NCBI RefSeq assembly: GCF_050920415.1
Contig: NZ_CP169309.1
DNA: 64,000 nucleotides
Direction: 5' to 3' (one strand)
Source of the DNA: Escherichia coli
GTDB taxonomy: Bacteria; Pseudomonadota; Gammaproteobacteria; Enterobacterales; Enterobacteriaceae
The translations under genes and the position numbers were made by a program. Each line of letters begins with the position of its first letter. The first letter of the stretch is position 1. Shown piece by piece: positions 51,023 to 52,361 of this stretch. A model generated the notes under the pieces. It was given only the letters and a program-made list of their open reading frames with translations. It was not told where the DNA came from and searched no databases.

Positions 51023-51027
51023 GCGGC
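51023..51027. repeat. IS2 target-site duplication, left copy (gcggc)
   Basis: Identical 5-mer directly flanks both IS2 ends. Confidence 0.8.
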
Positions 51028-51118
51028 TAGACTGGCCCCCTGAATCTCCAGACAACCAGTATCACTTAAATAAGTGATAGTCTTAATACTAGTTTTTAGA
51101 CTAGTCATTGGAGAACAG

Positions 51119-51482
51119 ATGATTGATGTCTTAGGGCCGGAGAAACGCAGACGGCGTACCACACAGGAAAAGATCGCAATTGTTCAGCAGAGCTTTGAAC
51201 CGGGGGACGGTCTCCCTCGTTGCCCGGCAACATGGTGTAGCAGCCAGCCAGTTATTTCTCTGGCGTAAGCAATACCAGGAAGGAAGTCTTACTGCTGTCG
51301 CCGCCGGAGAACAGGTTGTTCCTGCCTCTGAACTTGCTGCCGCCATGAAGCAGATTAAAGAACTCCAGCGCCTGCTCGGCAAGAAAACGATGGAAAATGA
51401 ACTCCTCAAAGAAGCCGTTGAATATGGACGGGCAAAAAAGTGGATAGCGCACGCGCCCTTATTGCCCGGGGATGGGGAGTAA
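51119..51482 (+). pseudogene. insC: IS2 insC (orfA) with apparent 2-bp deletion/frameshift
   Basis: [29 protein letters not shown] then frame switch to ...[24 protein letters not shown]... near 51200. Confidence 0.6.
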
Positions 51483-52345
51483 GCTTAGTCAGCCGTTGTC
51501 TCCGGGTGTCGCGTGCGCAGTTGCACGTCATTCTCAGACGAACCGATGACTGGATGGATGGCCGCCGCAGTCGTCACACTGATGATACGGATGTGCTTCT
51601 CCGTATACACCATGTTATCGGAGAGCTGCCCACGTATGGTTATCGTCGGGTATGGGCGCTGCTTCGCAGACAGGCAGAACTTGATGGTATGCCTGCGATC
51701 AATGCCAAACGTGTTTACCGGATCATGCGCCAGAATGCGCTGTTGCTTGAGCGAAAACCTGCTGTACCGCCATCGAAACGGGCACATACAGGCAGAGTGG
51801 CCGTGAAAGAAAGCAATCAGCGATGGTGCTCTGACGGGTTCGAGTTCTGCTGTGATAACGGAGAGAGACTGCGTGTCACGTTCGCGCTGGACTGCTGTGA
51901 TCGTGAGGCACTGCACTGGGCGGTGACTACTGGCGGCTTCAACAGTGAAACAGTACAGGACGTCATGCTGGGAGCGGTGGAACGCCGCTTCGGCAACGAT
52001 CTTCCGTCGTCTCCAGTGGAGTGGCTGACGGATAATGGTTCATGCTACCGGGCTAATGAAACACGCCAGTTCGCCCGGATGTTGGGACTTGAACCGAAGA
52101 ACACGGCGGTGCGGAGTCCGGAGAGTAACGGAATAGCAGAGAGCTTCGTGAAAACGATAAAGCGTGACTACATCAGTATCATGCCCAAACCAGACGGGTT
52201 AACGGCAGCAAAGAACCTTGCAGAGGCGTTCGAGCATTATAACGAATGGCATCCGCATAGTGCGCTGGGTTATCGCTCGCCACGGGAATATCTGCGGCAG
52301 CGGGCTTGTAATGGGTTAAGTGATAACAGATGTCTGGAAATATAG
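51440..52345 (+). CDS. insD: IS2 transposase InsD (orfB, DDE integrase domain)
   Basis: 301 aa. Confidence 0.9.
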
Positions 52346-52356
52346 GGGCAAATCCA

Positions 52357-52361
52357 GCGGC
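52357..52361. repeat. IS2 target-site duplication, right copy (gcggc)
   Basis: Identical 5-mer. Confidence 0.8.

Follow-up and report, generated by a model that had tools for sequence, protein, structure and literature searches.

The DNA considered here is a 64,000-nt stretch of Escherichia coli (contig NZ_CP169309.1), referred to below as the window, in which a copy of the insertion sequence (IS) element IS2 interrupts ypjA, the gene that RefSeq names 'adhesin-like autotransporter YpjA/EhaD'. The element is 1329 bp long, lies on the + strand at 51028-52356 in the same orientation as ypjA, and is bordered on both sides by a perfect 5-bp target duplication, GCGGC. Both the element and the gene carry a further lesion: two bases are missing from insC of IS2, and one G is missing from a G run in the part of ypjA that encodes the β-barrel. 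The features of the locus are given below with the evidence on which each is based; abbreviations are IRL and IRR for the left and right inverted repeats and ORF for open reading frame.

50939-51043, + strand: ypjA 5′ fragment, codons 1-29 plus two bases of codon 30, then running into IS2 and stopping after ...AARLAP (translation)
51023-51027, no strand assigned: left GCGGC of the target-site duplication (single GCGGC in empty-site alleles)
51028-52356, + strand: IS2, IS3 family, IS2 group (alignments with K-12 IS2A and the pMFDS1022581_1 copy)
51028-51069, + strand: IRL, 42 bp, intact (G at element position 32 is a common allele)
51119-51268, + strand: truncated insC (orfA), 29 native and 20 out-of-frame residues, then a stop (ORF list; NCBIfam; comparison with K-12 InsC)
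51200-51210, + strand: site of the 2-bp 'AT' deletion (alignment with K-12 IS2A)
51206-51482, + strand: codons 31-121 of insC, no longer in the frame of its start codon (NCBIfam TnpA profile; frame analysis)
51434-51440, + strand: intact A6G slippery site, at which the -1 frameshift producing OrfAB is programmed (sequence; role per PMC3219604)
51440-52345, + strand: insD (orfB, DDE catalytic domain), intact (protein equal to K-12 InsD1; NF006918)
52316-52356, + strand: IRR, 41 bp, intact, with a CA-3′ terminus (matches reference copies exactly)
52357-52361, no strand assigned: right GCGGC of the target-site duplication (single GCGGC in empty-site alleles)
52357-56229, + strand: ypjA passenger with AIDA/Ag43-type repeats, from codon 29/30 to a premature stop (ORF list; NCBIfam; identity to intact alleles)
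56162-56165, + strand: G4 run, G5 in intact alleles, giving a -1 frameshift (comparison with intact alleles)
56235-56945, + strand: rest of the ypjA β-barrel (translocator), out of frame with the passenger (TIGR01414)

IS2A of E. coli K-12 (NC_000913.3, 381260-382590, 1331 bp) was taken as the reference copy; in a global alignment of 1331 bp it differs from the window element by 4 substitutions and a single 2-bp gap, a nucleotide identity of 99.7%. By the ISfinder convention, copies above about 95% nucleotide identity are the same IS, a level that the window element passes. InsD has the same protein sequence as K-12 InsD1, scores 727.6 bits against the NCBIfam profile 'IS2 transposase TnpB' (NF006918, cutoff 597) and occurs in exactly this form on at least 1000 contigs; the name IS2, given to the element in an initial annotation made from the letters alone, is supported by both the profile and the InsD1 identity. 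The 64-kb window contains one IS2 left end, where the chance expectation is 0. At the left junction ...gcgatgGCGGC is followed by tagactggccccc, and at the right junction ggggcaaatcca is followed by GCGGCctttacc; in longer form the window reads ...ccgcccgcgatgGCGGC / TAGACTGGCCCCCTGAATC...GGGGCAAATCCA / GCGGCctttacctct, with the slashes marking the junctions. The two imperfect inverted repeats align with a single gap and 31 matches in 42 positions, and the element terminates in ...AAATCCA. Like the MG1655 copy IS2A (insC1/insD1), the window element has the IS2 ends, the A6G site, InsD and a 5-bp duplication, and its overlapping orfA/orfB layout is recognizable but no longer intact, with orfB and A6G whole and orfA split by the 2-bp deletion. 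It differs from IS2A in being 1329 rather than 1331 bp long, in having lost the codon-30 'AT' of insC, and in having OrfA/OrfAB cut short.

The substitutions relative to IS2A comprise one in IRL and three synonymous changes in insD. All four also occur in an IS2 copy on a plasmid of E. coli MFDS1022581, and only the IRL change (G32) was separately shown to be common: 2,409 records share the first 80 nt of the window element at 100% identity. This A-to-G change was considered as a possible second defect of this IS2, and was ruled out because so many records have exactly that left end. The MFDS1022581 copy in question lies on plasmid pMFDS1022581_1 (NZ_CP169400.1), where the enterohemolysin gene ehxA is broken by an IS2 of the window allele and where 11 IS2 places were found; recent activity of IS2 in this lineage seems likely. 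This copy is 1331 bp long, is annotated with a normal programmed frameshift, and matches the window element at every base except the 2 that are missing from the latter.

When IS2 and one GCGGC were removed from the window, the flanks formed one continuous frame, MNRTSPHYCRRSVLSLLISALIYAPPAMAAFTSNVIGVV..., which joins the signal peptide to the passenger domain. The insertion lies in codon 30 of ypjA, directly after A27-M28-A29. The upstream fragment, whose DNA is that of the start of intact ypjA alleles, encodes a 29-residue predicted signal peptide (MNRTSPHYCRRSVLSLLISALIYAPPAMA) followed by ARLAP and a stop. The signal peptide was called by inspection from its positive residues (R3, R10 and R11), its hydrophobic core and its A-M-A (A-X-A) motif, and we infer that the point of insertion is the predicted signal-peptidase cleavage site.

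The reconstructed empty site, with the flanks joined and one GCGGC, was 100% identical to MFDS1022581 over 1,267 bp. In local BLAST the alignments of the two flanks to this genome overlap by exactly 5 bp, and its empty site therefore contains a single GCGGC; a single GCGGC was also found in seven further ypjA alleles. The initial annotation had reported identical GCGGC 5-mers around an element inserted after the signal peptide of the adhesin gene, had noted that removal of the element plus one repeat restored the frame, and had proposed a comparison with uninterrupted alleles. All of these points held: MFDS1022581 matches both flanks with GCGGC present once, and the insertion is in codon 30, right after the A-M-A of what is a predicted signal peptide. 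MFDS1022581 is also very close to the window outside the insertion, with 4 substitutions and no gaps over window positions 1-51027 (99.992% identity). Using IS2 plus both flanks as query, we found no IS2 at this site in 5,426 complete E. coli genomes; query coverage reached 80% or more in only 2 records, whose insertions are at other sites. Neighborhoods of the identical YpjCB protein contained intact ypjA alleles and no copy of the insertion at this site. Because the near-identical MFDS1022581 has the empty site and no complete genome has IS2 there, the insertion is best regarded as recent and private to this strain.

Insertions of IS2 elsewhere in ypjA were seen in two other strains. CP131_Sichuan (NZ_CP053720.1, 5455-6785) has an independent 1331-bp IS2 variant, 95.5% identical, in the signal-peptide codons of ypjA at the equivalent of window 50978-50982, which is 45 bp upstream of the window site; this element is in the same orientation as ypjA and is flanked by a 5-bp duplication, CTTTC. 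In VG48B2, IS2 lies about 1.5 kb into ypjA, again in the orientation of the gene. These two cases differ from that of the window in their target sites and ypjA alleles and, unlike the window copy, their elements are full length (measured as 1331 bp in CP131_Sichuan) and are annotated with an intact programmed frameshift. Because two independent IS2-family insertions of one orientation are separated by only 45 bp, the end of the ypjA signal peptide could be thought of as a preferred IS2 target, at which the 2-bp deletion was then a selected immobilization and not random decay; we regard this as very improbable.

The two bases missing from the window copy are an 'AT' (reference positions 179-180), gone between window positions 51205 and 51206 in the alignment with K-12 IS2A, so that CCGGGGATGACGG has become CCGGGGGACGG. 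In insC they form the first two positions of codon Met30. Reading from the insC start at 51119, the stop codon now falls at 51266-51268 and the product has 49 residues. The NCBIfam profile 'IS2 repressor TnpA' is split accordingly, its positions 1-30 matching the truncated insC and its positions 31-121 an ORF at 51180-51482. The difference from canonical IS2 given in the initial annotation, a 2-bp deletion with a length of 1329 instead of 1331 bp and a frame change in insC, is confirmed against every reference copy examined, and InsC is truncated after 29 native residues. An 80-nt query centered on the deletion found 11,788 IS2 places in 3,272 of the 5,426 complete genomes; none of them matched the deleted sequence at full length and 100% identity, and the top-ranked full-length matches all had 97.6% identity, that is, they had the two extra bases. 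Because no full-length exact match was found among these places, we take the deletion to be private to the window copy. In an exact look-up, the products of the lesions (the IS2-ypjA fusion ORF, both truncated versions of InsC and the split insC remainder) were absent from a collection of 15 billion proteins, as were the barrel fragment and the signal-peptide fragment of ypjA.

Lewis et al. (PMC3219604) describe OrfAB as the functional transposase of IS2, produced by a -1 frameshift at A6G close to the end of orfA. In their description, residues 13-58 of this protein form the DNA-binding domain, a bundle of three helices in which M30-K51 is the helix-turn-helix (HTH), and residues 73-100 contain a leucine-zipper-like (dimerization) motif. 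As the M30 codon has lost its first two bases, any product that begins at the insC start would be devoid of the HTH and the zipper-like motif, and would include neither the frameshift site nor any of the catalytic domain. The window copy is thus predicted to make no OrfA regulator and no OrfAB transposase, and would be unable to mobilize itself through the figure-eight and minicircle intermediates of IS2. It may still be a substrate for the transposase of other IS2 copies, because IRL, IRR, A6G and insD are intact. The description 'transposition-defective' in the initial annotation therefore stands insofar as the element would not supply its own transposase, and does not stand insofar as both ends are intact and the transposase of another IS2 copy could in principle move it. 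The deletion also brings the insC start into the frame of insD, and rescue of the frame as an insC-insD fusion is ruled out by five intervening stop codons.

An association with biofilms and a relationship to the self-associating class of autotransporter adhesins have been described for YpjA (PMC9289746), and intact and disrupted ypjA alleles are both present in the study strains. In the window, the passenger contains the TIGR04415 repeat in 11 stretches and matches the NCBIfam models for Ag43 and AIDA-I in part. The initial annotation had missed a second lesion in this gene, the G5-to-G4 deletion at 56162-56165. It lies in the β-barrel domain, shifts the frame at codon 1299 and leads to a stop after residue 1318; the remaining 236 codons match the autotransporter barrel TIGR01414 at profile positions 193-432 (E = 1.4e-55). 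When IS2 and one GCGGC are taken out and one G is put back, the sequence equals an intact ypjA allele (L007) base for base, with 4,674 nt and 1557 aa. The repaired gene, in the same genomic place, is thus like YpjA/EhaD, an AIDA-I/Ag43-type, type Va autotransporter, whereas the gene as it stands has its barrel out of frame with the passenger and is a pseudogene rather than a functional member of the group. Excision of IS2 would not restore a working adhesin because of the independent frameshift at 56162-56165. As the passenger domain is now without an export signal, the interrupted ypjA would be a null allele; it is a pseudogene twice over, through IS2 at codon 30 and through the -1 frameshift at codon 1299.

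One could alternatively suppose that the insertion is not simply inactivating, and that IS2 drives or re-initiates expression of the passenger through its right end. An in-frame ATG at 52330 inside IS2, present by chance, lengthens the mechanical passenger ORF, so that an ORF from within IS2 runs in frame into the passenger, and RefSeq starts ypjA inside the IS in CP131_Sichuan. However, the predicted product would have no signal peptide and, owing to the frameshift at 56162-56165, would be without most of the β-barrel, and it would be neither exported nor displayed. A scan for an outward promoter at the right end of IS2 found no promoter-like site on the + strand. We consider expression of this kind to be extremely improbable, and favor the null allele.

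Among the 2,520 records that have the segment, the G4 form was found at full length only in MFDS1022581. The ypjA of that strain is without IS2 and has extra lesions of its own, including a second single-base deletion nearby. Because the frameshift is shared by a strain that has no IS2 there, parsimony suggests that it preceded IS2, and ypjA was probably already a dead gene when the element arrived. The course of events that we propose would begin with the 1-bp deletion in the G run of the ypjA barrel. A standard IS2 would then have entered ypjA by the usual copy-out/paste-in route of the IS3 family, duplicating GCGGC and splitting ypjA at the predicted signal-peptidase site. The 'AT' of insC Met30 would have been lost after insertion, leaving an immobile copy whose intact ends make it a possible substrate for the transposase of other IS2 copies. 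Taken as a whole, this account of a recent IS2 insertion in ypjA, a later insC deletion and a doubly broken gene is very likely correct. Every detail of the first observation was borne out, and the second ypjA lesion is an addition to it.

Several points nevertheless weigh against this account. The order of frameshift before IS2 is a parsimony argument made at a homopolymer, and at such a site an identical mutation can occur a second time. Furthermore, translation could start internally at TTG 51180, which is preceded by AGGA at a distance of about 9 nt, and could yield OrfA/OrfAB without helix 1; such proteins are predicted to be inactive given that a helix-1 mutation, R13H, abolishes both binding and transposition (PMC3219604). 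As the analysis covered 64 kb of this genome, the deletion in insC may also have come before the insertion. If the deletion were the older event, a defective IS2 would have been moved into ypjA by the transposase of another copy. IS3-family transposases prefer to act on the copy that encodes them, and this cis preference speaks against such a transfer, as does the fact that no other copy with the deletion was found in the complete genomes. On the other hand, the ends of the element are intact, there are many IS2 copies in the lineage, with 11 places on the MFDS1022581 plasmid, and the residual (background) transposition of null-mutant IS2 has been ascribed to chromosomal IS2 copies (PMC3219604). 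We judge an older deletion to be quite unlikely and retain loss of the 'AT' after insertion as the preferred order.

The last point is that an assembly or polishing error is possible at the 2-bp site and is more likely still at the G run. Such errors could account for the insC deletion, and possibly also for the 1-bp deletion in ypjA, in which case the real element would be an active 1331-bp IS2. The absence of an exact match among some 11,800 IS2 places is what would be expected of an error too, and the presence of IS2 in multiple copies makes polishing harder. The ypjA lesion, for its part, is in a homopolymer, and its only other carrier, MFDS1022581, has the second single-base deletion close by. 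Yet the 'AT' lies outside any homopolymer or simple repeat, where long-read indel errors typically occur. The remaining 1329 bases agree completely with a known IS2 allele, and the 51 kb to the left, which are without gaps relative to the closest relative, argue for a clean assembly. Error is an unlikely explanation.

The gene order around the site is the usual one: ileY, ypjCB, a recombinase remnant and ypjA. The remnant (50325-50492, + strand), a short resolvase/recombinase piece between ypjCB and ypjA, is a partial pseudogene in RefSeq relatives. Further upstream, at 47721-47796 on the + strand, a tRNA with a CAT anticodon was called 'Met' by ARAGORN, and the matching gene in RefSeq is tRNA-Ile (ileY). 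Synteny with MFDS1022581 stops at window position 57132, and from 57133 to 64000 the window contains the end of a P2/186-like prophage; at this position MFDS1022581 has a different, lambdoid prophage. The prophage genes recognized in the window are the following.

58816-59829, - strand: prophage integrase
59831-60463, - strand: CI-like repressor
60864-61373, + strand: CII-like activator
62351-63268, + strand: DNA methyltransferase

Between ypjA and the prophage integrase, a 506-aa ORF (57283-58803, - strand) matches only phrog_14259, a group of unknown function; it had no PADLOC hit and its exact sequence was absent from the collection of 15 billion proteins. It may be phage cargo. Elsewhere in the window, a two-gene unit between luxS and emrB (17325-19141, - strand) is annotated in MFDS1022581 as an AAA family ATPase and an RNA ligase family protein, and neither protein gave a PADLOC hit. 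A tandem tRNA-Arg array is located at 12813-13714, where two overlapping antisense tRNA-Arg calls by ARAGORN are probably spurious.

The insertion of IS2 and the decay of ypjA are routine, textbook IS3-family and pseudogene biology; there is nothing new in them, and no new mechanism or family is involved. For annotation, the locus is correctly described as a pseudogene of ypjA that carries two lesions, together with an IS2 copy with a disrupted insC, and the finding has little importance beyond this. As private markers, the insertion and the 2-bp deletion could help to type strains or trace outbreaks in this Shiga-toxin-type lineage. The locus also provides an example of ongoing IS2 activity, followed by the decay of single copies.
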